A DNA stretch of 64,000 nt from Candidatus Kerfeldbacteria bacterium (GCA_963731735.1 CAVSWO010000002.1:756257-820256), one strand, 5' to 3'. Shown: positions 1 through 26,708, counted from the first letter of the stretch. A program made the numbers and translations. The notes: generated from the letters alone by a model not told the origin.

Positions 1-437
1 CGGCGACCGCTCAACCCGGCCTGCAGGGCACAGTCCTCGGCAAGGTTGATTTCGGCATCCGGTTACTGGGCAAACAAATCCGTCGCGCCAAACGTAAATT
101 CCGAATCCGAGCCACCTTTGATACTCAGGTAGCTGTCATCGATTATCTCCCAGGCATGCAGGCGAAACCCCCGGGCGGCAGCCATCCGCCGAGCGGATAT
201 TTTTTGTCGGTGGCTGAAGGGTTTGGCGACCAGCGCACCATCACCGATCTGATTCGGAAATTGGCGCCGGTGCCGATCGCGGTCTATGCGCCGGGCGGTC
301 AGGGGTCGTTGCCGACGAATGCCTTGATTCTGCGTGATCCAAATCGAACCAATGCCTTACTCCGCTTTATGTGGGCCCTCGGCCAGACGCATGATCCGAA
401 AAAAATCCAGGCCCTGCTGACTCGGGAGACAACCTGA
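1..437 (+). CDS. hypothetical protein, 3' part of a gene that starts upstream of the window
   Basis: The frame read from nt 3 stays open until TGA at 435-437. That stop overlaps the ATG of the next gene (ATGA coupling). Confidence 0.5.
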   Translation, partial: ATAQPGLQGTVLGKVDFGIRLLGKQIRRAKRKFRIRATFDTQVAVIDYLPGMQAKPPGGSHPPSGYFLSVAEGFGDQRTITDLIRKLAPVPIAVYAPGGQGSLPTNALILRDPNRTNALLRFMWALGQTHDPKKIQALLTRETT

Positions 438-1045
438 TGCATATTTACTTTTACGGTCCGCCGACCAAAGCCCAAGCCGCGCTGGATACCTACCAGATAA
501 TTAAAGACAGCCTGCGACAAAATGATATTTGGCTGTCCACCAACACCGAATCGGATGAAGTCCAGGTCTCGGCTGAAGTTATGGCCGAAGCCAAACAGAC
601 CAACGTCCCGCTGCTCGAGCGGATGGACGCCTTTTTAATTGAAGGCTCGACCAACGATCCGCAAGTCGGTTTTCTGTTGGCCCAGGCCCTGGCCCAGGGT
701 AAGCCGACCCTCTACTTGTACCGCCGCGGCATTGTGCCGCAAATATTTCAGCACCTGTCGCAAAAAGAACTGCCAAAGCACCTACACGCGGTCGCCTACA
801 CCGAGACCGGCTTGTCGAAAGCCGTCCAGGCCTTTCTGGAACAACTGACCGGTATGAAAATCAAGCAGGTTCCGCGCCACAAGTTCACGCTGCGGATTAC
901 CGACGCGATCGAGGAATTCCTGCATTTCAAAACGCATAATACCAAACAGACCAAAGCCGATTTTCTCCGGGAAAAAATTGAGGATTGGATGGAATCGGAT
1001 AGTGATTGGCAGCAGCATCAGCGTCGCCGACGTCGGCGCGAATAA
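437..1045 (+). CDS. nucleoside 2-deoxyribosyltransferase-like domain protein with an Arg-rich C-terminal tail
   Basis: MHIYFYGPP... and FLIEGS..DPQVGFLLAQALAQGKP match the YFxGP / ..EIGYAxAxGKP pattern of the deoxyribosyltransferase fold. The gene is translationally coupled to the upstream ORF. Confidence 0.45.
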   Translation: MHIYFYGPPTKAQAALDTYQIIKDSLRQNDIWLSTNTESDEVQVSAEVMAEAKQTNVPLLERMDAFLIEGSTNDPQVGFLLAQALAQGKPTLYLYRRGIVPQIFQHLSQKELPKHLHAVAYTETGLSKAVQAFLEQLTGMKIKQVPRHKFTLRITDAIEEFLHFKTHNTKQTKADFLREKIEDWMESDSDWQQHQRRRRRRE

Positions 1046-1050
1046 AAAAA

Positions 1051-1079
1051 CTCCCCGTTACTTCCGGGAAGTTGGGGAG
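1051..1079. terminator. hairpin between convergent genes
   Basis: CTCCCCgttaCTTCCgGGAAGttGGGGAG palindrome preceded by an A-run on the + strand, which is a T-run on the - strand. It overlaps the last codons of the - strand ORF. Confidence 0.45.
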
Positions 1080-1306
1080 GTGTACGGGTGGTCGCTCGAC
1101 CGAAGGCCGTGTCCGACCAGGAGCACCAGTACCAGGGCCACGATGATGCCGGGCCAGTTGCCGAAGAACTTGACCCACGGTGCGATGATGGTAAACAGGC
1201 TACTGTCCTGCAGTTGGGTGACTTGGGCGATGGGGGCGCTGAAGAAACTCTTCAGCCAGGCGGACGCCAGCAAACCGCACAGCAGAATGAACGCGAGGGT
1301 GCGCAC
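1058..1306 (-). CDS. small hydrophobic membrane protein (DUF378-like)
   Basis: 82 aa with two predicted TM segments (FILLCGLLASAWL and GIIVALVLVLLVG). Confidence 0.45.
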   Translation of the reverse strand: MRTLAFILLCGLLASAWLKSFFSAPIAQVTQLQDSSLFTIIAPWVKFFGNWPGIIVALVLVLLVGHGLRSSDHPYTSPTSRK

Positions 1307-1776
1307 GATGATCCTCCATGAACAAGCGCACTGAATTCGGGGCGGACCTGGGTAGTTATAATAAATAAATAAAAATCACGCAAGGGCGATGCCGGCCTTT
1401 GCCCCCTCCAGCCATCTTTAAGCAAACTGAAAACCGTGTACGCTTCGACGTACAGGCGATGCTTTTGTTGGGCGTATAAGAGTCTTGACAGAGACGCGTT
1501 GTTACCACCGCGCTCCCGACCAGAACATCAGCCGAGCAGATTTCCGCGAGGGAGACCTACCCGACGCCATCGCAAGCCCATTCCGGCTCACACGCCGTCA
1601 TCAGTTTTCAGTCTCTGAATGAAATCACACCAGAACCGAAGGTGTCAATCCCGAATGCTAGCCCTTTACGGACCGGAGGGTGGGGTGTAGGCTTGGGTTA
1701 TAAATACTGGTTATTATCCGAACCAAGTTCGCATAATAACCAGTTGTCCGAAATAACAATAGATTAAAATAATAAT

Positions 1777-2415
1777 GTGATTTATTTAATTGGTGGTCCG
1801 CCAAAATGCGGCAAGACAACGCTTGCCAAAAAATTGTCCCGCAAACTTAAAATACCATGGGTCGCGGCCGATACCCTGCAAGTTGTGGCGCAAAAATATG
1901 TCAAAAAATACGTCTCCCGAAATGAGTTTCGAAGGTTATATCCGAGTTCAGTAAACAAAGGCAAAACGACCGATGAGACCTATTCTTTACGTACCCCAAG
2001 ACAACGGGCGCGGGATTACCAACAACAAGCAAAGGCAAGCTACGATGGTATTGAAATGTTTTCACTTTGTGAAATCAAGGATCAAAACGACTACATCATC
2101 GAAGGATTTCAGGTCACGCCACAACTTGCAGCAAGGTTGATAAAAAAGTACGGTGCACGTAACTTTCGCGTACTTTTCCTGTATAAACAAGATTCGGAGA
2201 AATTTGTTAGAGACGTGCGAAAAAGTTCAACACCAAATGACTGGATTCTGCGGGATACTAAACATCATCGAACTCTTTACAAGATAGCTGAAATGGTTAG
2301 CATTTATGGACAATTTTTTGTCCGCGAATCAAAAAAGTACAAGTTTAAGTCACTCTCGATGGACAGCGATTTTGGCGGACAACTTACAAAAGCGATTGTA
2401 TTACTTTCAAATTAA
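1777..2415 (+). CDS. P-loop NTPase / kinase-like protein (Walker A GGPPKCGKTT)
   Basis: GTG start; N-terminal LIGGPPKCGKTTLAKKL Walker A motif. Confidence 0.6.
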   Translation: MIYLIGGPPKCGKTTLAKKLSRKLKIPWVAADTLQVVAQKYVKKYVSRNEFRRLYPSSVNKGKTTDETYSLRTPRQRARDYQQQAKASYDGIEMFSLCEIKDQNDYIIEGFQVTPQLAARLIKKYGARNFRVLFLYKQDSEKFVRDVRKSSTPNDWILRDTKHHRTLYKIAEMVSIYGQFFVRESKKYKFKSLSMDSDFGGQLTKAIVLLSN

Positions 2416-2455
2416 CCCTATTGTTACTCCGGACAACAGCGTCTATACGAAATAG

Positions 2456-2496
2456 CAAGTACTTCGTATGAGACGCAAACGTTGTACGAAATTCTC
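2456..2496 (+). repeat. island repeat R1 (core CTTCGTATGAGACGCAAACGTT)
   Basis: Intergenic, downstream of the P-loop gene. It shares a CGCAAACGTT core with R2-R4 and contains the TTCGTA..TACGAA inverted repeat. Confidence 0.6.
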
Positions 2497-2557
2497 TTTG
2501 TGAAAAACTTGTAAAAATGATGGTTTTGGCACTTTTTATTAACTTATTCTTGAACAA

Positions 2558-3319
2558 ATGGAAGAACAAAGTGGTGGTTTTAGAAAGTTTCTAAGTACGC
2601 GTGCCGGAAAATGGACGATAGCTGCGGCGGTTATTTTTGTGCTTTATTTGATCGGAAATAACAGCTTGAAAAATGCTCAGGAACAAGTTAACGCCAATCA
2701 AGCCAATACAAACAGCGAGACTAATACGAATATTGCAGTCACAGCTAACAATACCAATCAAGAGCAGCCTCAAGCTAACACCAACACACAAATAAATAAC
2801 AACACAGCAACAGCTCCTGTTTCAACTAATACTAATAAAAACTCAGCCCCTACTAACACCAATAATAATCCAGCGCCAACATCGAACGAAACGACTAGTC
2901 AAAAAAATGCCGTCGCGTCAGCAAAAATTTATTTAAGCACTGGTGCATTTTCCCACGATGGTTTAGTTGCTCAATTAGAGTATGAAAAATTTTCACACGC
3001 GGATGCTGTGTATGGAGCGGATCATTCTGGCGGTGATTGGAATGCTCAAGCCGTTAAATCGGCTAAGGCTTACTTAACCACCTCCGCATTTTCTCATGAT
3101 GGACTAGTTGCTCAACTGGAGTACGAAAAATTCACAGAAGCTCAGGCAGTATACGGAGCAGACAATTCAGGTGGTGACTGGATGGTGCAAGCTGAAAAAG
3201 CCGCCAAAGCATACATGGATAATTCGTCTTTTTCACGCGATGGTTTGATCGCACAGTTAAAATACGATAAGTTCACACAAGCCCAAGCAGAACATGGGGC
3301 TGACTCAGTTGGACTATAA
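2558..3319 (+). CDS. membrane-anchored protein with three tandem Ltp-like (host cell surface-exposed lipoprotein / superinfection-exclusion type) domain repeats
   Basis: N-terminal TM helix and an Asn/Thr/Gln-rich linker are followed by three copies of AKxYLxTxAFSxDGLxAQLxYEKFxxAxAxYGAD..GGDW. This resembles the Pfam Lipoprotein_Ltp repeat. Confidence 0.65.
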   Translation: MEEQSGGFRKFLSTRAGKWTIAAAVIFVLYLIGNNSLKNAQEQVNANQANTNSETNTNIAVTANNTNQEQPQANTNTQINNNTATAPVSTNTNKNSAPTNTNNNPAPTSNETTSQKNAVASAKIYLSTGAFSHDGLVAQLEYEKFSHADAVYGADHSGGDWNAQAVKSAKAYLTTSAFSHDGLVAQLEYEKFTEAQAVYGADNSGGDWMVQAEKAAKAYMDNSSFSRDGLIAQLKYDKFTQAQAEHGADSVGL

Positions 3320-3377
3320 GGGCCGAGAATAAAAAGTGCCAAAATTGAATTGTTTTTCACAAAAGAGAACTCCGTAC

Positions 3378-3440
3378 AACAGCGCGTATACGATATGCTT
3401 CGCAGGATCGTATACGCGCAAACGTTAGTCGAAATATTTC
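3378..3440 (+). repeat. island repeat R2 (13-bp perfect inverted repeat GCGCGTATACGAT..ATCGTATACGCGC plus CGCAAACGTT)
   Basis: Intergenic, downstream of the Ltp gene. Its first 26 nt are near-identical to R3. Confidence 0.65.
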
Positions 3441-3715
3441 TTTTCTTTTCTCGGGCTGTCGCCGAAGCGGAGAACAATCTATTAAATTTCTTTCTTTACA
3501 GCCCTACTCAGATAGCGGCTGTTAAGTCTTGACAAAACCTAGTAAACACCCTATACTGCCACGTCTATCATTCTTACTTTGTAATGTCTGTGGTAGCAAC
3601 GAGAGCATAGCTTAACCGTGCTTTGATTGTTGCCGCGGAAACGCCGTGGTGACTTACGCGCCCCACTTAGCGATCTTGGGTCAACTCAAGACGCAAAGAA
3701 GAATGGAGACGTGTT

Positions 3716-4147
3716 ATGTCAAGCCTGGTTCTTTTGAACAACGAAGGTGTCGTCGCCCGCAAGCTCCAGCTCGTTTCACTACCAGACGATTACATCGTAC
3801 CTGAAGGGATGTTGGTCAGCTGGAGGATGGAAGTCGAATCTTGGTCGCGGGATTCCTTGGCAAGCCTCCTCAAGCCAGGGCCAGAGCCAGTGGAGGCATA
3901 CTTCTACCTCGGTAATGCACGTGCACAGGTCAATCGTACAAGCATCGAGCCATTCGTGGGCGGTGACTTCGGTCGGATGCGTTACGGCCTTCGGATCCTG
4001 ACCATCACGGTACAGGGAACTTCGGCAAAAGATGTGATGGCGTTGCGTGATCGCATCATGCACCTCGTCACCACAGGTGCTCACTGGGCAGTGAGCAACG
4101 ACCTGAATCCAAAGCGCGGGTTCCTGCACAGGCTCATGGGGAAATAG
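3716..4147 (+). CDS. hypothetical protein
   Basis: 143-aa ORF in the island gene array; no recognisable motif. Confidence 0.45.
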   Translation: MSSLVLLNNEGVVARKLQLVSLPDDYIVPEGMLVSWRMEVESWSRDSLASLLKPGPEPVEAYFYLGNARAQVNRTSIEPFVGGDFGRMRYGLRILTITVQGTSAKDVMALRDRIMHLVTTGAHWAVSNDLNPKRGFLHRLMGK

Positions 4148-4282
4148 GACTTCCTCTGCAACATGGCCGCTTAGTAGCGAAAGCGAACGGCGGCCTTCTC
4201 ATTTCCTCATGAAGAGAAATTTGAAAGATTTTTTCCCGCGCCCCGCTACGACGGGAAAAAAAATAAGGAATACGTTCAGCTA

Positions 4283-4347
4283 ACAGCGCGTATATGATAT
4301 ACTTCGTACAATCATATGCGCGCAAACGTTGTTAGGTGAAATAGTGC
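4283..4347 (+). repeat. island repeat R3 (GCGCGTATATGAT..ATCATATGCGCGC plus CGCAAACGTTGTTAGGTG)
   Basis: Paralog of R2, downstream of the 143-aa gene. It is flanked by GCTAAC .. GTTAGG, which resemble inverse-core and core attC sites. Confidence 0.65.
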
Positions 4348-4440
4348 GCGTATGTCTGGATTCTTTTACAGGTTATACATAAAGTGTTCTTTGGCAGGAA
4401 AATCATCTTAGGGGACGTGGCAATCCAAGAAAAGGAGGGA

Positions 4441-4752
4441 ATGGTCATGTTCTTTCGGCCTGGTAAGAAGAAAGAGTTGACTCTGGAACAACAGATCCTT
4501 CGTGAGCTGTTCAACAACGGCCCAATGGACGGAGCTCAGATCGCTGCCAAGTTGTTGGAGCTTGACGAGATCAAGCTTAGATCGGCACTTTCATCGCTGA
4601 TCGAATCAGGGCTCATTGAGTTCAGGGAAGAGCAGAGCGACACCGAGGATTTCTTCTGTCTTGTGTGGGGTAAAGCAACAAGCTTCCGAAAAAAGACACG
4701 TGAGCAACGGAAGTTGCAGGCGAGGCGGGTCCTTAACACCACTCAGGCGTAG
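4441..4752 (+). CDS. small winged-helix-like DNA-binding protein
   Basis: AAGGAGG sits 4 nt upstream of ATG 4441. LTLEQQILRELFNNGPMDGAQIAAKLLELDEIKLRSALSSLIESGLIE reads as an HTH/wing. Confidence 0.45.
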   Translation: MVMFFRPGKKKELTLEQQILRELFNNGPMDGAQIAAKLLELDEIKLRSALSSLIESGLIEFREEQSDTEDFFCLVWGKATSFRKKTREQRKLQARRVLNTTQA

Positions 4753-4869
4753 CAAGTCCATCGCAGTGTTTCACTGAGGGAAACAGTATGTTTCCCTCGT
4801 CCCCTAAGAGGAATTTCAATCGCTGTCAAAGAAAATCGCAAACTACACCCCCTAACAGCACCTATCCGA

Positions 4870-4908
4870 CATATCGAATACGTCCTATGAGACGCAAACG
4901 TTAGCTGC
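4870..4908 (+). repeat. island repeat R4 (CCTATGAGACGCAAACGTTAGC)
   Basis: Fourth copy of the CGCAAACGTT core, immediately upstream of typA. Confidence 0.55.
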
Positions 4909-5023
4909 ATCCATTGACGCAGCTCTCAGCGCATAGTATAGTATGTCTCTGCCTACGCTCGTACCTTGGCTGACAGGCGCGCCCACGAGGCGCTTTTTTA
5001 GAGGATACCGTCATCAATTTTTT

Positions 5024-6841
5024 ATGGAACGCCGCAAGGATATCAGAAACATCGCCATTATTGCTCACGTTGACCACGGCAAAACAACCCTGGTAGACGC
5101 GATGCTCAAGCAGACCCAAGCCGCGCGCAATTTAGACGATATGGGCGAGCGAATTTTGGATTCGATGGATCAGGAACGAGAACGGGGGATTACCATCCGG
5201 GCCAAGAACGCCTCGGTCGTCTATCATGCCATCAAAATAAATATCATCGATACGCCGGGCCACGCGGACTTCGGCGGCGAAGTCGAACGGACGCTGCGAA
5301 TGGCCGACGGGGTCCTGTTGCTGGTGGACGCCAAGGAAGGGCCGATGCCACAAACGAAATTCGTGACCCGCAAGGCGCTGGAACTCGGCTTGAAAGCGAT
5401 TGTGGTGGTCAACAAAATCGACAAAGCGGATGCCGATCCGGACGAAGCGGTCAATAAAACCTTTGACCTATTCGGCACCCTGAATGCCACGCATGAGCAG
5501 CTCGATTTCCCGATCGTGTACGCCTCGGCGATTGCCGGAACCGCCACCCTGGATCTGACCAAACCCGGCACGGACTTACAACCGCTGTTTGAAACGATAT
5601 TGCAGCACATTCCGGGCCCGGAGATTCGGTCGAATGATCCGCTGCAATTACTGGTCTTGGCCCTGGCCAATGATAACTACAAAGGCACGCTCGGGATCGG
5701 AAAAATTTTAGCCGGCAAGATCCGCAAAGGGCAGCCGGTGGCGCGGGTCAAACGCGACGGCACGATTGACCGCAGCAAGGTGACCGATATTTTGGTTTAT
5801 CAGGGCTTAGCGCAAACGGCGGTGGAGGAAGCCGAAGCCGGTGAAATCGTGGCGGTGGCCGGGATCGAAAAAATTGCGATTGGGGAGACGATCGCGGACG
5901 CCGAACAGCCGGTGGCCATACCGCCGGTTGACGTCGATCAACCGACCGTCCAAATGACCTTCGGCGTCAACACCTCGCCGTTCTCCGGCCAGGACGGGAA
6001 ACTGGTGACCTCGCGCCAGATTCGCGAACGCTTGATGAAAGAACTGGAAACGAATGTGGCGCTGCGGGTGGCCGAAACCGACAATGACAACAGCTTCCTG
6101 GTGTCGGGTCGGGGGGAATTGCACCTGGCGGTCCTGATTGAACAAATGCGCCGGGAAGGTTTTGAATTGCAGGTTTCCCAGCCGCAGGTGATTTTGCATG
6201 AAGCCAACGGCCAAAAGTTGGAGCCGTATGAACTGGTTACGATTGACGTGCCGGCCAACTATCAGGGAGCGGTGATTGAGGAGTGCGGCCGACGCAAGGG
6301 CGAACTGCTCTCGATGGACACGACCCCCAGCGGCGATCTGCATCTCGAGTACGACATGCCGACCCGCGGGGTGATTGGATTAAAGTCGGCTTTGATGACC
6401 AAGTGCCGCGGCACGGCGGTGGTCAACCACCTATTCAACAAATACGAACCTTACGCGCCGGAACTGATCGACGCCAACAGCCACGGTTCGCTGATCGCCT
6501 TTGAGCACGGCAAGAGTACCGGTTACGCCCTGGACACCGCCCAACAGCGCGGCACGTTATTTATCGGCCCGGGCGTCGATGTCTATGCCGGGATGGTGGT
6601 CGGGCAAAGTGGTCGGGATGAAGACATTGAAATCAACGTGGCCAAGGAAAAGAAGCTTTCAAACATGCGTTCCAAGGCCTCTGATGCCGCGATTCTGCTG
6701 GCTCCGCCGCGGCAGATGACGCTCGAACTGGCGCTCGAGTATATCGGGAGCGACGAACTGGTGGAAGTCACGCCGCGATCGATCCGGATCCGGAAACAAA
6801 TCCTCGATTCGAACGAGCGCAAACGGACGGGGAAAACGTAA
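5024..6841 (+). CDS. typA: translational GTPase TypA/BipA
   Basis: MERRKDIRNIAIIAHVDHGKTTLVD..DTPGHADFGGEVER..NKIDK. The ORF is open from 4943, but the homologous start is M at 5024. Confidence 0.9.
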   Translation: MERRKDIRNIAIIAHVDHGKTTLVDAMLKQTQAARNLDDMGERILDSMDQERERGITIRAKNASVVYHAIKINIIDTPGHADFGGEVERTLRMADGVLLLVDAKEGPMPQTKFVTRKALELGLKAIVVVNKIDKADADPDEAVNKTFDLFGTLNATHEQLDFPIVYASAIAGTATLDLTKPGTDLQPLFETILQHIPGPEIRSNDPLQLLVLALANDNYKGTLGIGKILAGKIRKGQPVARVKRDGTIDRSKVTDILVYQGLAQTAVEEAEAGEIVAVAGIEKIAIGETIADAEQPVAIPPVDVDQPTVQMTFGVNTSPFSGQDGKLVTSRQIRERLMKELETNVALRVAETDNDNSFLVSGRGELHLAVLIEQMRREGFELQVSQPQVILHEANGQKLEPYELVTIDVPANYQGAVIEECGRRKGELLSMDTTPSGDLHLEYDMPTRGVIGLKSALMTKCRGTAVVNHLFNKYEPYAPELIDANSHGSLIAFEHGKSTGYALDTAQQRGTLFIGPGVDVYAGMVVGQSGRDEDIEINVAKEKKLSNMRSKASDAAILLAPPRQMTLELALEYIGSDELVEVTPRSIRIRKQILDSNERKRTGKT

Positions 6842-19449: not shown

Positions 19450-20172
19450 TTATTCAGCCAGGAAGTTATCCCGGATGACCGATGCAATATCGATCGCAGC
19501 CAGGTCGCACCAATCTGGTGCGGTATCGTACTCGTCATTAGTATGGAGATCGACGAATGATGAATTCCGTAATCCATTTCCCACCAGAACGGTCAGGAAC
19601 CCGCAAGCCTTGGCGGTTCGCAAGCTGGACGGAATATCATCAAACATGCAGATCATTTCAGCCGGTACACCGATACGGAGAATTGTTGCATCGTAGACTT
19701 CCCGATGCGGTTTACGGATAAATCCGTGATCCTCGACCGTAAAAACATCGGTGATGACGTCAGTGTATCCCAGCCGCAACAAGCCCCGGGTAACAAATGA
19801 ACGGTTTGAGTTTGAGAGCACGAATAGAGGAATTCGATGTGCTAACTCTTTGAGCGCTTGGTGCAATCCGTGCTTGGGCGTTATCGTACTGATGTCGAGT
19901 CCGTTGTACAGCTCTTCGTAGAATTCGTTCGGATCGATCCCATAGTCCTCCTGCAGTCCGAGAATGCTCGAGCGGTATTCCTTCCGGTAGTGCTCAAGCA
20001 ACTTACGAATTTCGCGGTCAGGTAGATGCAACCTTTTTCGCGCGCAGTAGCGAAAGCGCTCCTTAATCTGTGCCTCAATGCCGGCGCTGGACGGGTAAAG
20101 CGTACCGTCAAAATCGAGCACGCAGGCCTTGATCGGACGATCGGTTCCTTTTGGGATAACGGTGTTGGGCAT
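19450..20172 (-). CDS. HAD-superfamily hydrolase
   Basis: LDFDGTL motif I and MFDD motif IV. Confidence 0.8.
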   Translation of the reverse strand: MPNTVIPKGTDRPIKACVLDFDGTLYPSSAGIEAQIKERFRYCARKRLHLPDREIRKLLEHYRKEYRSSILGLQEDYGIDPNEFYEELYNGLDISTITPKHGLHQALKELAHRIPLFVLSNSNRSFVTRGLLRLGYTDVITDVFTVEDHGFIRKPHREVYDATILRIGVPAEMICMFDDIPSSLRTAKACGFLTVLVGNGLRNSSFVDLHTNDEYDTAPDWCDLAAIDIASVIRDNFLAE

Positions 20173-20490
20173 GGTGTACTCCTCTCCGAAATTAACAAAG
20201 AACGCCGCCGACTGGTTGCCGGGTAGCGTATCGCTTATGCCAATTGCCTAAACCACCTAACCTAAATTTACATCATTTAATGGTACTATGCAAGAAGCGC
20301 CTCGACCCTCAACTATTACCCCCTAAACTAGCCATCCAACCCCAAGTTGCACAATGGGTCGATTTCTGCTATATTCACAGCGTATTTTTTGATACGCCGA
20401 CGTGAATATTTTTACGGCAATCAGTAGCCTGGCTGAGCATCATCGAGTAACCCGCCCCTCCACGAGGAAGGGCGTGATTGTCGTTATTCC

Positions 20491-20622
20491 ATGATCGGCT
20501 GGCTGCTCCTACTCCTCGCGGTGGCCGAATTCGGGCTCGGCCTGTACTTTATTTTCCGCTACCGAGGAAATCAAGCGACGCTGCCACACGACAAGACAAG
20601 TTATATTTTGGTGAAGAAATAA
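20491..20622 (+). pseudogene. orphan N-terminal fragment of a 7TM sensor (GC-rich)
   Basis: The 43-codon MIGWLLLLLAVAEFGLGLYFIFRYRGNQ resembles the N-termini of the 7TM sensor paralogs at 20902, 21746 and 23876. It sits at the left edge of AT island 2. Confidence 0.35.
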
Positions 20623-20644
20623 TGAATCCCGTTAGAGTTGTTGT

Positions 20645-20905
20645 ATGTTTTACACTTAAGTACTTGTCAGTAAGACTAACGGTCGATGGTATACAGGCTT
20701 CACGAACGATTTGCGGAAACGTTTGATGCAACATCACGCTGGAAAATCGCCGTATACCCGCCACCGAGGACCCTATGAACTTATGTATTATGAAGCATGT
20801 ATGAATGAATTTGATGCAAAGGCTCGAGAGCGTTATCTCAAATCTGGAATAGGAAAACGATATCTGAAAAATCGTCTCAAACGTTTCCTAACTCTAACGG
20901 GATGA
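20645..20905 (+). pseudogene. GIY-YIG (COG2827-type) gene with an in-frame TAA at codon 5
   Basis: Reads [26 protein letters not shown]...[18 protein letters not shown]. The TAA sits where the family has Tyr (TAC/TAT). Confidence 0.5.
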
Positions 20906-21573
20906 AAACTCTCCTTCTTACCTTAACGTATCTGGTCGGAGCGGGGGAACTTCTTTTATCCGGATTTTTTTGGAAAACAAATAGCGGAAATACAATACGG
21001 CGAATCATGTCATTTTTCGCTCTTGTTACTGGATTTTGGGTTATTTCAACAGCAGCGGCATCGTATAATACATCGATTTCCGGAATTACGTGGTATCGTT
21101 CCGCACACGTTTTTGGTCCTTTTTTAGTCACCACACTTTTTGTTTTTGCCACTCAATTTCCGGTTAGTACATGGCGACTTGACAAGTTACATTATGTATT
21201 TATCTATGCGCCAGCAACACTGTTTTCTCTAATAATTATGAGTTCGACTGAGTTTTTGGCCGGATTCACTGCGACATCTACAGATTCTGGAAGTTGGTTT
21301 GGAGGATCAATATATTGGCTGTATTCGTTACTGTTATTATGTTTTTATCTGGCCACAGTTATAGTATTAGTTACAAAATACAGAATTGTAGATGGGATAC
21401 ATCGAAAAAATTTGACCATTGTGTTTGTATCCATTGTTCTCGGCGGTTTTCCGGCGATAGTAACAGATGTACTTTTTTCATTATTTACAAATGAAGGACG
21501 ATACGCGATTGTGGGTAGTCTTATGACGGTATTTTGGCTAGGTATTACGAGTTATATAGTATTGAAGAAATGA
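20902..21573 (+). CDS. standalone 7TM sensor-domain membrane protein (paralog 1)
   Basis: 223 aa and polytopic. Its N-terminus is shared with the HK at 23876 and with fragments at 20491 and 21572. Confidence 0.6.
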
Positions 21574-21767
21574 AAACTCTCCTCCTCACCCTAACCTATC
21601 TCGTGGGCGCAGGAGAACTCATCCTTGCAATTTATTTTTGGGCAACGAATTTGAATAAGTGGCATTTATATAAACCTCAACTGTGGAGCTTTTTCAACAA
21701 AAGTTTGGCTTGGGATAACGATTTATATAATCAAAAGAATGATTTATGTACCCGATTTTTGACATAG
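21572..21767 (+). pseudogene. duplicated N-terminal fragment of the 7TM paralog
   Basis: [17 protein letters not shown] repeats the first 17 aa of the 20902 gene. It runs into the next gene in a different frame. Confidence 0.4.
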
Positions 21768-22414
21768 TTTTCCTATCAGGAGTTGGTCTGGCAGAAATAT
21801 TTCTCGCATTATTTTTTTTCAAAAAATATCAAAAAAACTCGGCTATTACAGCTTTCGGATTCTTTACTCTTTCAATAGGTCTTTGGGTATTTCTTAACGG
21901 GATTGCTTACCTATTTCCTCGAGGAAGTCAAATTATCGATATCGAGGGTAGATTGATTTTTGTGGCAGCGGCATTTATTTTTCCCTTCCTATACATTTTT
22001 TTAAAAAACTTTCCACTCCCAACTTTTGTTTCAAAAATGCAGTGGTTTTGGATATTATTTCCAGCCGCGCTCATTTCTCTTACGGTCTTTTCCAATAATG
22101 TTATTATAGGTTTTGCAACTGATACTTACGCCCTTACACAGTATGGGAGTGACTTTTGGATATACACCATATATTTGGCCTTTATGTTTTCGTTAGTACT
22201 CATCGAATCTTGGCAATCGTATGTACGAAAGGATAGCGCACATACGAGAGTCCTTAAATACGTATTTATTGGTTTGCTTATTTCTGGGACTCTAGGGATG
22301 CTCAATAATTTATTACTACCATATTTGTTGCATGTTAAAGAGTTTAGCTGGCTAGGATCAGGAGCGTCCATTATTTGGTTAGCACTTATGGGCTGGGTTT
22401 TGGTAGGTGATTAA
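21746..22414 (+). CDS. standalone 7TM sensor-domain membrane protein (paralog 2)
   Basis: 222 aa and polytopic. Confidence 0.55.
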   Translation: MYPIFDIVFLSGVGLAEIFLALFFFKKYQKNSAITAFGFFTLSIGLWVFLNGIAYLFPRGSQIIDIEGRLIFVAAAFIFPFLYIFLKNFPLPTFVSKMQWFWILFPAALISLTVFSNNVIIGFATDTYALTQYGSDFWIYTIYLAFMFSLVLIESWQSYVRKDSAHTRVLKYVFIGLLISGTLGMLNNLLLPYLLHVKEFSWLGSGASIIWLALMGWVLVGD

Positions 22415-22654
22415 TGTTATGATCAAAACTCTAATAACTCATTCAGACTATAAGAGATACTTTTGTTTTGCTAAAAATTTCAGATCGGAGGCTACAATTA
22501 TTTTATCAATATTATCCTAAATGTGTTATGCTAACGAAGTATTTACTAAAGTTATATAGTCTTAAGAAGGCGAAATACTTACCTAAATAATACTTAATCA
22601 AACTTAAGAGTATAATTTCAAGACCCAGTAGTAATTTCTGAAGACTAAGCGATT

Positions 22655-23866
22655 ATGGACACTTTTGAAATCATAACAAACAAGGTTAAGTCAGAAGGAC
22701 TTCAACCAGACTTCCATGTGCTTCAATCGGGTGTTAATGAACCCGAGTGTACAATTGAAGGCAAGAAGTACATACTATTTTGCGCAAATAACTATTTAGG
22801 TTTAACTCAAAATCCTAAAGTTAAAAAAGCAGCGATTGAGTCTGTAAAAAAGTATGGAATGGGACCAGGGGGGTCTAGGGTTATTAGTGGTAACGTTGAT
22901 ATTATTGTTGAGCTTGAACAGAAATTATCTGAGCTAACCCAAACGGAGGACAGCATCACATTCCCAACGGGTTACATGGCTAACATTGCTGTTTTTAGTG
23001 CGGTAATGGATCCTGTTTTTGGAAGTATTTTTGGTGACGACGCAATCAACAATCAAGGTGGTGTGATATTTTCTGATGAAGATAACCATGGATCGATCAT
23101 TGATGGGTGTCGACTAAGTTCAGCGAAAAAGGTGGTTTTCAAACATAACAATATTGATGATTTAAATAAAAAAATTAAGTTAAATGATCTTCCAAATAAG
23201 TTAATTGTAACAGAGGGGGTATTTAGTTTAGAAGGCGAAATAAATAATATTCCGAAATATATTGAAGTTGCCAAATCGAATGGTGCAAAATTAATGGTTG
23301 ATGACGCACACGGGGTTGGTATTTTGGGAAAACAAGGAGGGGGTGTTGGAGATCACTTCGACTGTTCAGAAGATATCGATATTTATATGGCTTGCATGGA
23401 CAAAGCCTTAGGTGGTACAGGTGGATTTCTTGCTGGGAAGAAGGCTTTAATAGATTTCCTGCGAATAAGTACAAGATCATCCCTACTATCCTCAGCAATC
23501 ACAACTAGTATGGCTGGAGCAATGATAAAATCAATAGAACTAATAAGTAATGGGAGTAAGTTGCGCGAGCAACTATTTGAAAAATCAGATTATCTTAGAA
23601 GAGCTTTAAAAGAAAATGGTTTTACAATTTTGGGTGACGACAATATTCCCTCCGTTCCCCTCCTCGTTGGGAATGATGCTATTGGGGTTAGATTTGAAAA
23701 AGCCCTTTTTGAGGAAGGGATTTATCTTCCAGTTGTGCGTTGGCCCGCCGTACCATATGGCACTTCCAGATTTAGAATTATTGTGATGGCACAACATGAA
23801 AAAAAACACCTGGATAAACTAGTGGACGCGTGTACCCGCGTAGGCAAAACACTATCTATAATATAA
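22655..23866 (+). CDS. PLP-dependent alpha-oxoamine synthase family (BioF/Kbl/serine palmitoyltransferase-like)
   Basis: NNYLGL, GSRVISG, DEDNHGSIIDG, VDDAHGVG and DKALGGTGGF (Lys) motifs. Confidence 0.75.
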   Translation: MDTFEIITNKVKSEGLQPDFHVLQSGVNEPECTIEGKKYILFCANNYLGLTQNPKVKKAAIESVKKYGMGPGGSRVISGNVDIIVELEQKLSELTQTEDSITFPTGYMANIAVFSAVMDPVFGSIFGDDAINNQGGVIFSDEDNHGSIIDGCRLSSAKKVVFKHNNIDDLNKKIKLNDLPNKLIVTEGVFSLEGEINNIPKYIEVAKSNGAKLMVDDAHGVGILGKQGGGVGDHFDCSEDIDIYMACMDKALGGTGGFLAGKKALIDFLRISTRSSLLSSAITTSMAGAMIKSIELISNGSKLREQLFEKSDYLRRALKENGFTILGDDNIPSVPLLVGNDAIGVRFEKALFEEGIYLPVVRWPAVPYGTSRFRIIVMAQHEKKHLDKLVDACTRVGKTLSII

Positions 23867-23875
23867 ATACCATTT

Positions 23876-26708
23876 ATGCTTAATGCTGGGTATTTAACCC
23901 TATTTGTTGCCGTTGCGAATCTTTTGCTCGGATTTTTCGTTTTATCGCGTGGTAAATCAAAACCATTATACATTTCATTTTTTCTTTTCACTCTTGTCGA
24001 TGCAATTTGGAGCCTTACAAATTTTGTATTCGAATTCTATTCTCAATCAATATTTATATTTAGAAGTCAATACGCAACAGGAGGTTTGACCCTTGTAATG
24101 GCTCTAATATGGATTTATTACCTTATTAGGAAAGACTGGCTTTCAAAGAATGAAATTATTTCAACCACAGTTCTTGGGGTAATAATTTTTTCTATTCCAT
24201 ATCTTGGAGGACTTGTCGTGGACTCGATTTCAAAGTTACCAGATGGTAGCTATGATTTTATACCTGGACCGCTTTTTGATTTTTATAGCGGATTACTACT
24301 TATCATACTTGGCTACCTTTTCTATTTGTTGATTAGGGCTGAAAGAAGAGTGAGAGGGATACAAAAAGTCCAGCTCAGGTATGTTATTGCTGGTGTATCG
24401 ATTTTCGCAGCAGTCGCCATATCTTTTGGATTAATACTGCCCCTATTTGGCTACAGTTCGATAGTGGCATTCGATGCTCAAAGCTCGTTGTTTTGGATCA
24501 TATTAACCACCTATGCCATTCTTCGTCATCGTTTACTCGATATTAAGTTTGTACTGACCAGGTCCATTACTTATGGGATTCTCCTTACTCTCGTAACCTT
24601 ATCTTTTGTATTTATTACATTCATTTCAGGACAATTCTTTGGCAATACAACTATAAGTAGGAATATCATTGCATTTATTATCGCAATACTTATAGTTTTT
24701 GGACTCGATCCCCTGAAGAATTGGCTTTCAAGAATTTCCGATAAAATATTTTTCCAAGCCAAGGTAGACTATCAACAATTACTTCGAGAAGTTTCAGAAA
24801 TTCTTGCATTTGAGATTAGCCGTGATGAATTGATTATTAAAATTCGAGAGAAACTTCAAGAAGGATTGAAGGTTAAATTTTCCGGTATATTATTGCGCAA
24901 TCAATCCAATGGAAAAACACAGAAATTTGAAGCTCTTCAAGATCTCTTACATCAATACCCAAACCTCTCTCTCCAAAACACCAGTCCGCTCGTTCACTTT
25001 CTCCGCGAACACAAACACTACTCAATCGTTGAATCACTCGAACGGAAAATAGAAGATGCAGATGATGGGGAACGCACAGAACTCGAGACCTCGAAAGCCG
25101 AATTCGACCGCTTGGAGGCTTCTTTAGTTACGCCAATTTTTGCTCAAGGGCACCTAATCGCGATTTTAGCCCTGGGTCCAAAACTTTCTGGCGATAGTTT
25201 TTCAAACGATGACATCAACCTAATCGAAGTATTATCGCCGCAAATCGGTTCGGCTATCCAAAAAGCCAACCTGTTTGAAGAAGTCCGGCAGTTTAATATC
25301 AGCCTGCAACTCAAAGTCGACCAAGCCACCGCCCAACTGCGCGAAAAGAACGTCTCGCTTGAAACGCTGCAGCACATTAACAAGGAGATTACTCAAACGC
25401 TCGATTTCGAAAAAGTTGTTCAGCAAATCGCCGACTCGGTCAGCACCGAACTCGGTTACCAAGGCGCGATCTTGGCCTTCCTGGATGATGACGGGAAAAC
25501 GTCACGCGCGCGGGCGATTACTCATACCAAGTTGACGGAAACGGCCCTGAAGCTCTTACCGACGCATTTCAGTGAATATCACAGCGACATCACCGACCCG
25601 AAAACCCATAATTTGAGTGGCAAGGTATACCAGACCGGACAGACGCAAATCACCAACAACTTCGCGCGCGTGGTCTCGCCGCCGTTGCCGAAGCTGCTAG
25701 CCCAGACAATTCAAAAGGTGGTCGGGCATTAAATCAATGGTCTTAATCCCGATTGTATCCGAAGGGAAAACTATCGGCGTGATTGAAATCGGTACCAAGA
25801 AGGATCAAGGAAAACATCACCCAGCAAGAACTGGAAACTATGCAATCGGTGGCGGACGAACTCGGAATCGTGTCCCGAAACTTCAAACTCTTCGGTCAGT
25901 TACAAAAAACCAACCAACAACTCGAAGTTGCCAACGAAAACTTGAAAGAACTCGACCAGCGCCAAGTCCGAATTCGTGTCGATCGCTTCGCACCAATTGC
26001 GGACGCCGATGACCGGCATTATGGGCTACCTGTCGATGATGACCCAGGGCGATTTCGGTAAGATTAAACCCGAGCATCGTCGAAATTCTCCGCAACCTGC
26101 TGTCCGAATCGCAGCGCATGATCCGCCTGATCAACCAATTCCTGAATGTCTCGAAGATTGAGGCCGGCAAGTTTACCTACACTAAGAAACCGGTCCAGAT
26201 TCTGGATTTGATTACCCAGGAAGTTTCAGAGGTCAAAAAAGCGGCGGCCGATAAAGGCCTGAAACTGGTGGTCAAATTGCCGAAGACCCTACCGACGATC
26301 GTAGCCGACGGCGATAAGATTCAAGATGTTATTTTGAACCTGGTCGATAACGCGATTAAATACACGGCCAAAGGCAGCGTGACCGTCAGCGCCAGCCACG
26401 AAGACGGCTTGGTTCACGTGAAAGTCAAAGACTCGGGCGTCGGGATTAAACCGGAAGACGCGCATGAATTGTTCAATAAGTTCGTGCGTGGCAGCGGCAT
26501 CGCCCAGATTCATCCGGACGGATCGGGTTTGGGCCTGTTTATCGCCAAATCGATCATTGACGCCCACGGCGGTCGGATTTGGGTCGAGTCCGACGGCGAA
26601 GGCAAAGGGAGCACCTTTCAGTTCGTGATTCCGATTCAGCCGCCGCCCGGCTTGGAAGAAACGCCGAAGTCGGCGGCCGCCCACGTTGTTTCAACCAAGC
26701 ATACGTAA
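23876..26708 (+). pseudogene. 7TM-GAF-GAF-HisKA-HATPase sensor histidine kinase, interrupted by four frameshifts
   Basis: Protein-like segments continue across frame changes near 25735, 25800, 25960 and 26075. They include VLIPIVSEGKTIGVIEIG, AKSEFVSIASHQLRTP and the HATPase_c G-boxes. GC composition switches mid-gene at ~25250. Confidence 0.55.

Follow-up and report, generated by a model that had tools for sequence, protein, structure and literature searches.

A probable integrase-less integron-type cassette array in Candidatus Kerfeldbacteria and the recombinase family linked to its relatives

The island and its cassettes

The DNA analysed here (the window) is a 64,000-nucleotide stretch of a Candidatus Kerfeldbacteria genome (GCA_963731735.1, CAVSWO010000002.1:756257-820256), in which four genes on the + strand, each followed by a hairpin repeat, form an island just upstream of typA. 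The island, positions 1703-4912, is very probably an integrase-less remnant of a sedentary chromosomal integron-type platform, i.e., an attI site followed by four gene cassettes, of the type known as CALIN (cluster of attC sites lacking integrase). A sequence-only reading of the same DNA had proposed an integron-like array and named a CALIN as one possibility. The comparisons below support this proposal, including related copies in other genomes that adjoin IntI-like genes in integron geometry. The island appears to belong to an undescribed variant of integron, in which the integrase is without the IntI-specific I2 region and the asymmetry of the attC site is mirrored.

The repeats share the decamer CGCAAACGTT, which the sequence-only reading had already seen as a common motif. 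It occurs in four exact copies in the 64 kb, all on the + strand and inside the island only (at 2474, 3417, 4321 and 4893), and the ten one-mismatch matches elsewhere in the window are at chance level. Each copy ends a 49-nt + strand hairpin repeat that starts with AACAGC: R1 at 2435-2483, R2 at 3378-3426, R3 at 4282-4330 and R4 at 4854-4902. R2 and R3 had been placed correctly before, and R1 and R4 about 20 nt too far to the right; the 13-bp inverted repeat with a 12-nt loop described for R2 and R3 is present. All four repeats lie downstream of an open reading frame (ORF) on the same strand (+), at stop-to-repeat distances of 20, 59, 135 and 102 nt, and they follow each other at 572-943 nt from start to start. 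Two covariance models of the site family, R1 and R2, find exactly R1-R4 in the window at E<=0.01, with 42.9-81.6 bits. The only extra matches, at 22-25 bits, are weak hits to sites R1 and R2 on their opposite strand.

The left boundary of the island lies at about 1700-1703. Here, at 1703-1745 (+), there is a predicted attI-type insertion site, a simple site with the inverted boxes GGTTATTATCCGAAC and GTTCGCATAATAACC and then a crossover GTT at 1743-1745. Cassette 1 (1744-2481, +) has an ORF at 1777-2415 and ends in attC R1, with the R'' flank at 2418-2434 and the core at 2435-2483 (81.6 bits against model R1). The encoded protein of 212 aa has a P-loop and is similar to small-molecule kinases, although the support is weak throughout, with 5.9e-6 for Pfam AAA_18 and about 1e-7 for the kinase models of NCBIfam. 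Cassette 2 (2482-3424, +) has an ORF at 2558-3319 and ends in attC R2 (core 3378-3426). Its product is a membrane-anchored protein with three Ltp repeats (Pfam Lipoprotein_Ltp, 1.9e-35), which also matches phrog_4980, annotated as 'superinfection exclusion', at 2.6e-49.

Cassette 3 (3425-4328, +) ends in attC R3 (core 4282-4330), after which a second GTT follows at 4331-4333. Its ORF at 3716-4147 encodes a protein of 143 aa, for which no family was found in Pfam, PHROGs or NCBIfam, and it is preceded by a predicted promoter at 3529-3557 (TTGACA-17-TATACT, score 11/12). Cassette 4 (4329-4900, +) has an ORF at 4441-4752 with a ribosome-binding site, AAGGAGG, at 4432-4438. The small protein is winged-helix-like (Pfam F-93_WHD, 6.6e-4, below the cutoff). 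The terminal attC of this cassette, R4 (core 4854-4902), is more degenerate than the other three and has 60.1 bits against model R1 and 42.9 against model R2. The kinds of protein named for these four + strand genes in the sequence-only reading (a P-loop NTPase, a protein with three Ltp repeats, a 143-aa hypothetical protein and a small winged-helix protein) are confirmed by the Pfam, PHROGs and NCBIfam searches. The right end of the island is at 4901-4912 (+), where the approximately 10 nt TTAGCTGCAT after the GTT of R4 fit the cassette-start consensus; the start GTTAGCTGA(A/C)AT recurs in five loci from elsewhere (L002, L013, L020, L077 and L083).

The base composition of the island is a mosaic, as independent acquisitions would give. 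The GC content is 36-47% in cassettes 1 and 2, 54-57% in the ORF of cassette 3 and about 50% in cassette 4, with flanks at about 52-65%. Thus, the earlier description of an AT-rich island holds for the first two cassettes and not for the ORF of cassette 3 or for cassette 4. A scan of window positions 1-6000 against Rfam, a library without an attC family, gave no match at E<=1. The window has no tRNA or tmRNA gene in a scan for them, and a tRNA-linked island can therefore be dismissed.

Cassette ends and site structure

The ends of a cassette are complementary to each other. In cassette 1, the start flank 1743-1762 and the end flank 2418-2437 are 90% complementary, and in cassette 2 the flanks 2481-2499 and 3362-3380 are 89% complementary. 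The four flank pairs of the window pair at 18/20, 17/19, 10/18 and 6/18 positions. The same comparison was made for 92 sites in 21 arrays from the window and other loci. When the 18 nt that follow the GTT of a site are set against the 18 nt that precede the AAC of its successor, a mean of 11.45/18 positions pair, compared with 6.57/18 for the two flanks of the same site and 6.36 (standard deviation 2.1) for random pairs. By a tally from the pair list, about 39 of 71 adjacent site pairs reach at least 13/18. Pairing between the post-GTT flank and the next pre-AAC flank is the circular-permutation signature of integron cassettes. A cassette would thus reach from crossover to crossover, and on excision its two ends would form the outer stem of its own attC. 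At its left end the array has a bare GTT (1743-1745) without a core, and at its right end it has a core, which shows that the core travels at the 3' end of the gene, as in integrons.

This signature bears on the idea that the repeats are a generic family, i.e., repetitive extragenic palindromes (REP), terminators or elements like miniature inverted-repeat transposable elements (MITE), which punctuate acquired genes without any site-specific recombination. The sites are indeed hairpins that follow genes, and the end module of cassette 3 contains a terminator-like hairpin. However, such a family would leave the complementarity between successive sites without explanation. Nor are there many dispersed copies behind ordinary genes: the check for a genome-wide REP or terminator family proposed by the sequence-only reading finds four copies in 64 kb, all in one 3.2-kb island, and none outside it. 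In other genomes, moreover, the strand and side of the sites relative to a recombinase gene are strictly fixed (see below). We consider a generic repeat extremely unlikely.

On both strands, R1-R3 can be folded into hairpins in which AAC pairs with GTT and the flanks with each other, so the R'/R'' pairing that the sequence-only reading had asked for is seen; R4 alone does not fold as an attC. That reading had also matched the ends of the repeats to the inverse-core and core pairs of attC sites. The AAC..GTT pairing stands, while agreement with the consensus is loose at the RYYY and RRRY positions. All 23 seed sites of the family have both AAC and GTT, as do 81 of the 92 array sites. When the proposed structure is applied to the 23 sites, the paired share of cells is 81%; shuffles reach 73% and slid controls 25-35%. 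Covariation is also present, with 58 double-change cells where 30 are expected from shuffles; the pairs 18:49 and 19:48 are fully compensatory, and RNAalifold recovers the same stem independently. The variable loop makes the sites differ in length: nearly all hits fall between 65 and about 210 nt, and three outliers are longer, at 331-440 nt. The core, AACAGCG…CGCAAACGTT, is far more conserved across taxa than the sequence of canonical attC sites, and the stems covary.

In two respects these sites differ from canonical attC. First, the spacer is 1 nt (A) on one arm against 4 nt (RAAC) on the other in nearly all of 69 aligned sites, where canonical sites have 5-6 nt on each arm. Second, when read on the gene strand, the extra bases of the family sites, R1 of the window included, are on the 3' arm, and those of canonical sites on the 5' arm. 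As a control, attC_aadA1 of plasmid R100 was read and folded: its gene strand bulges two bases on the 5' arm and its bottom strand on the 3' arm, in agreement with the published rule for the position of extrahelical bases (PMC5027507). A bulged G is found in the short subtype of the family sites only, and most long sites are without any bulge in the L stem. Model R2 gives attC_aadA1 only 8.9 bits (E 0.44), although no other stretch of that locus scores higher and the match is on the top strand. After excision, a cassette would have an outer stem of at least 21 bp, against 7 bp in the canonical case. From the non-canonical spacer and bulges it follows that the mechanism may differ from the integron paradigm.

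Cassette 3 has additional end modules of about 70 nt, at 3427-3498 and 4211-4281, which are 80% complementary to each other. Its attC would then form a stem of about 190 nt in total. Modules of this type recur at cassette ends in five other loci (L013, L027, L020, L002 and L120). Within the 3' module, TTTTTTCCCGCGCCCCGCTACGACGGGAAAAAAAA and its flanking runs of T and A resemble a terminator for both directions.

Related sites and the linked recombinase

Relatives of the sites were sought in 185,579 species genomes, one per species, with the exact pattern AACAGCNNNTATN{26,28}CGCAAACGTT. The scan returned 30 loci, against about 13 expected by our own estimate from the degeneracy of the pattern and the size of the collection. 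About 19 of the 30 are clear relatives, mostly in Patescibacteria (metagenome-assembled genomes, MAGs, of Kerfeld-, Kuenen-, Uhr- and Microgenomatus-type). Some unrelated MAGs have cores that share 95-98% identity with those of the window over 51-58 nt. With the two covariance models, same-strand arrays of three to seven sites are found in many loci. Among the cassettes of the window, only the Ltp cassette has a homologue in other arrays: a protein 52% identical to it is encoded by the first cassette beside attI in L093.

Sites of the family, some in arrays, were also observed on contigs of four MAGs labelled 'Gammaproteobacteria' (L005, L018, L026, L027), on one of Zixibacteria (L008) and, as a single site, on one of Woesearchaeota (L023, 1-58). 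These contigs reflect either cassette exchange across phyla or mis-binned contigs from the candidate phyla radiation (CPR). The viral-classified contig IMGVR_UViG_3300031673_000740 (L032) has seven or eight sites on one strand at 55-3533, several of which are only 155-234 nt apart and form near-empty cassettes; no recombinase is encoded within its 12.9 kb.

A tblastn search with IntI1, a query validated by 799.5 bits over its full length against NF011946 and by 100% identity in plasmid R100, finds IntI-like genes beside the sites in four loci (L029, L024, L017 and L008). They lie on the AAC side and are transcribed divergently, which is the integron layout. The recombinases have about 272-279 aa and are 38-39% identical to IntI1, and the catalytic residues R, K, H, R, H and Y are all invariant in the alignment. 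However, the residues corresponding to about 194-231 of IntI1, the IntI-specific I2 region, are missing. About 37 residues are absent relative to both IntI1 and VchIntIA, and the additional domain by which IntI is recognised is therefore not there. This feature, like the attI hairpin at 1706-1744 and the unpaired bases on the opposite arm, is not in the sequence-only reading.

The profile searches place the family between IntI and XerA. The 'integron integrase' model TIGR02249 gives 219-234 bits, below its cutoff of 265 and in two stretches, and the XerA-type model NF040815 gives 212-239 bits, near its cutoff. TIGR02249 is the best NCBIfam match for L029 and L017, and NF040815 scores higher for L024. 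Among known structures, VchIntIA (PDB 2a3v) is matched at 8e-47, in two stretches that skip about 37 residues, XerA (4a8e) at 3e-43 and XerD (1a0p) at 2e-21. The family is very large: a search at E<=1e-20 finds at least 7,975 proteins, and at E<=1e-30 there are 2,575 clusters (50% identity). Its members carry public names such as 'tyrosine-type recombinase/integrase', 'XerD' or 'site-specific tyrosine recombinase/integron integrase'. Nearly all of the 150 best representative clusters align in a single collinear match without an I2 insertion. The protein P0263 (324 aa, 49% identical to an I2-less recombinase) carries about 40 additional aa where I2 would be; its alignment with TIGR02249 runs from end to end, but the score stays below the cutoff. 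A few other clusters have insertions or extensions away from this position.

The link between enzyme and sites was also examined in reverse, by searching 80 metagenomic loci picked solely because they encode a family recombinase. Model R2 has 76 hits in 36 of these loci, all of them on the strand opposite to the recombinase gene and upstream of its start. When only loci with at least 1 kb of upstream sequence are counted, 33 of 45 have a hit. With strand and side fixed in this way, the linkage between recombinase and array is not due to chance.

The same loci reveal the attI site. The motif TTCGCATAATAAC(C/G)A followed by GTT is present in 36 unrelated recombinase loci (35 by a motif scan, and L120 read directly). 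The consensus was derived from 34 distinct regions, namely the window, L120 and 32 other recombinase-adjacent loci. In array orientation it is …TTCGyATAwwAAC(G/C)A followed by GTTAnnnGAAAT, about 100-150 nt from the recombinase match, with an inverted TTCGCATAATA box just upstream of the motif. In the window, 1706-1745 reads ACTGGTTATTATCCGAAC-CAA-GTTCGCATAATAACCA followed by GTT and agrees with 17 of the 21 defined consensus positions. Its GCATAATAACCAGTT is found exactly in L063 and L064, and over 43 nt it is 88% identical to the site of L120, which lies 66 nt from the start codon of the recombinase. The hairpin at 1706-1744 has a folding z-score of -5 to -6.6. The site ends in GTT and abuts the first cassette, and the left edge of the island at 1703-1745 is best read as attI.

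The four bases before GTT are ACGA or ACCA at attI and RAAC at attC. Thus, the exchange point is at or within GTT, as in integrons. From the polarity of the arrays and the attI junctions, the antisense strand would be exchanged, at AA↓C. The unpaired bases would then be on the cleaved arm, the mirror of the canonical arrangement. Exchange of the gene strand with a crossover to the left of AAAC was considered and rejected, because the attI junctions have ACGA or ACCA, not AAAC, before GTT; the absence of the core at the left end of the array and its presence at the right end contradict it as well.

Two other explanations accept recombination at the sites and differ in the enzyme. In the first, a canonical IntI encoded elsewhere moves the cassettes, the island is an ordinary CALIN, and the short recombinases by the related arrays are bystanders. 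CALINs are common and most archaeal attC arrays are without a detectable IntI (PMC4889954; PMC9668308), and the relative P0263 does have an insertion at the I2 position. However, no canonical IntI is encoded in any fetched locus with arrays of this attC family. All 76 hits in the 36 loci have the same geometry, with attI at a fixed distance from the short recombinase, and the sites are without the extrahelical bases that an I2 domain reads. This makes a canonical IntI very unlikely.

The serious rival is the second explanation, in which the recombinase is the dimer resolvase of the host, an Xer enzyme beside its own dif site (our 'attI'), and the cassettes are tandem small elements that use folded hairpins in the manner of CTX-phi, i.e., integrative mobile elements exploiting Xer (IMEX). 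The recombinases score almost equally for XerA (NF040815, 212-239 bits; 4a8e, 3e-43) and for IntI (219-234 bits; 2a3v, 8e-47), and the family is very large. In addition, attI together with the cassette start (TTCGCATAATA-ACGAG-TTAGGCGAAAT) appears to resemble a 28-bp core site of the dif type, with E. coli dif as the reference. The GC skew around the locus was uninformative as a test for a terminus or dif. On the other hand, the arrays, in which as many as seven cassettes of 0.4-1.3 kb each contribute one ORF and one hairpin site, have the pattern of integrons and not of known IMEXs, and a separate XerC/D-like recombinase exists in the Kerfeldbacteria MAG L012. The window keeps attI and cassettes without the enzyme, which is thus dispensable at this locus, and two relatives have neither recombinase nor site at their typA locus. 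A host resolvase beside dif is therefore unlikely, though the two views may be neighbouring points on one evolutionary continuum.

In L012 (positions 1878-2831 and 4906-5880), the XerC/D-like gene (TIGR02224, 239 bits) and two attC sites are about 2 kb apart. The gene is on the distal side of the sites, which is not the integron geometry.

History of the locus and known systems

If the island is an integron-type array, its recombinase is missing. The sequence-only reading had seen no integrase in the window, and this is correct: tblastn with IntI1 and three family recombinases against the 64 kb gives noise only, and the additional 259 nt recovered upstream of the window (contig L001) contain no recombinase. 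A complete integron would have a recombinase within about 4 kb of attC, and the window does not. A CALIN is defined by at least two attC sites less than 4 kb apart and no integrase nearby; here there are four such sites, called with the family model in place of the standard one for attC. Searches with the DinB-like protein, TypA (P0121) and the proteins of cassettes 1, 3 and 4 for contigs reaching beyond the window start returned nothing. The 380 nt at 1320-1700, between a gene for a small membrane protein (1058-1306, minus strand) and the island, are non-coding with about 50% GC. No Rfam, tRNA or recombinase-remnant match is found there, and as the tblastn is noise-only in this region too, it contains no recognisable pseudogene.

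The nearest named relatives of TypA are from Candidatus Kerfeldbacteria (77-81% identity). In one related Kerfeldbacteria locus, L120, whose TypA is 83% identical, the order is recombinase, attI, attC sites and then typA. The recombinase gene is intact (273 aa, minus strand), and the array has two attC hits and compositionally mosaic cassettes that are unrelated to those of the window. Homology between the window and L120 starts at 1703, and the left flanks are not homologous. We infer, as the weakest step of our argument, that a complete element once stood here, from which a deletion removed the recombinase and the proximal attI. Five other relatives (L115-L119) have no array or recombinase at typA and share only typA with the window, so they neither confirm nor date a deletion.

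Several signs of mobility are visible. Cassette content is wholly different between the window and L120, which is the presence/absence polymorphism between related genomes that the sequence-only reading had suggested looking for. The near-identical attC cores in unrelated MAGs and the Ltp homologue in L093 are further such signs. In the sample ERR11594398, the Logan contig L001 (1,997 nt) corresponds to window positions -259 to 1738, and an independent contig, L114, to 2481-3446, beginning exactly at the GTT of R1. This short-read assembly thus breaks at 1738, 2481 and 3446, which is 0-20 nt from recombination points. A break exactly at 2481 is expected of a de Bruijn graph if the Ltp cassette had two left neighbours, which suggests that alternative cassette neighbours exist in the sampled population.

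We suggest the following mechanism. Cassettes would enter singly, as circles, in which the attC folds into a long R stem made from the cassette ends and closed by AAC/GTT; beyond this would come an internal loop with unequal sides (1 nt and RAAC), then an L stem and the variable loop. Recombination between the folded attC and attI would take place at G↓TT and involve the strand opposite to the gene strand; we infer both the single-stranded folding in vivo and the choice of the exchanged strand. The enzyme would be a tyrosine recombinase of the IntI/XerA-like family, with the full catalytic set and no I2 insertion, whose gene, in complete elements, is divergently oriented at a distance of about 100 nt from attI. 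In the window, where the recombinase gene and the recombinase-proximal attI are missing, the cassettes would be fixed unless a cognate enzyme is provided from elsewhere on the 823-kb contig or in trans.

A number of points weigh against an integron-type origin. The evidence for it is comparative throughout. The linked recombinase is without the insertion reported to be necessary for IntI activity, and the sites are without the canonical extrahelical bases and the 5-6-nt spacer (PMC5027507). Cassette 3 has its own promoter, which is atypical compared with the promoterless cassette of the textbooks. R4 is degenerate, and the complementarity of the R3-R4 ends is weak (6/18). Finally, the loss of the recombinase is read from one syntenic relative, with left flanks that are not homologous.

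In IntI, the I2 region reads the extrahelical bases and blocks the exchange of the second strand, and it has been described as 'not identified elsewhere' (PMC4792948; PMC9668308). That IntI requires the insertion to be active is reported by Messier and Roy (2001, cited in PMC9668308) and in PMC4792948. Smyshlyaev et al. describe it as 'not fully conserved' in their integron-like subgroup (PMC8138268). How I2 and attC could co-evolve is an acknowledged chicken-and-egg problem (PMC4792948). An enzyme without I2, tied to arrays whose sites are without extrahelical bases, is a coherent pair of differences. We give about even chances to the proposition that this is a functional integron lineage, widespread in Patescibacteria and with sites also in (unverified) bins of other phyla and of DPANN archaea, whose integrase works without I2 on sites with unpaired bases on the cleaved arm. 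If true, it could be a surviving pre-I2 stage between the integration of Xer/dif hairpins and modern integrons, or an independent solution to strand choice and one-strand exchange; with an I2-bearing relative, P0263, both are possible. The question of I2/site co-evolution would become directly testable by standard conjugation assays, and integron-type gene capture would be extended to the CPR. Full-text literature searches of incomplete coverage returned no description of such elements, nor a substantive link between integrons and Patescibacteria or the CPR. Current detection tools require the I2 region, so such platforms are probably called CALINs or missed. The island itself would be a fossilised record of horizontal acquisition in a Kerfeldbacteria genome, including a phage-type superinfection-exclusion gene.

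Among the neighbouring features, a typA promoter is predicted just past the island, at 4914-4942 (+; TTGACG-17-TATAGT, score 10/12). The leader, 4943-5023, has a GC-rich hairpin at 4979-4993 followed by TTTTTT, between the promoter and the likely start codon at 5024, and is a possible attenuator. The leader of typA in L120 is similar, with 72% identity over 130 nt. Further along, at 20000-26000, the GC content is low a second time, at about 39%; the genes there are for an aminotransferase, a GAF-domain protein and a HisKA_7TM-like membrane protein, and no attC-like sites are present.

Compared with known systems, the platform is closest in layout to sedentary chromosomal integrons and CALINs (Cury et al. 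2016, PMC4889954). These too have a divergent recombinase, an attI and same-strand, mostly single-ORF cassettes. In both, an AAC…GTT hairpin site, variable in length, closes each cassette and has the G↓TT crossover at its ORF-distal end; the cassette ends are complementary, the attC sites are similar within an array and integrase-less arrays occur. Unlike them, the family has a recombinase without I2 that scores below the TIGR02249 cutoff, a spacer of 1 against 4 nt, bulges on the opposite arm, an R stem of at least 21 bp and not 7, a core conserved across phyla, and hosts in the CPR.

The archaeal integrons (Ghaly et al. 2022, PMC9668308) are similar in that they occur in uncultured lineages with small genomes, including DPANN, that the integrase is mostly undetected and that attC sites are shared by distant taxa. 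Their IntIs have the additional domain and their attCs the canonical fold (PMC9668308), and the family differs from them in both. With CTX-phi and other IMEXs, which integrate at dif via XerCD (PMC4792948), it shares an Xer-like enzyme without I2, tandem accumulation at one chromosomal site and a folded hairpin that, without canonical extrahelical bases, mimics a double-stranded core site. However, those elements use the essential XerCD of the host and the chromosomal dif, and they are few and large and do not form single-gene cassette arrays, whereas the family has a dedicated, dispensable recombinase beside its own site. Finally, archaeal XerA with its adjacent dif (PDB 4a8e, 5hxy) is likewise a single recombinase of about 270-290 aa with PF13495/PF02899 and PF00589. 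XerA, however, resolves chromosome dimers and has no cassette arrays, and the family is somewhat closer to IntI.

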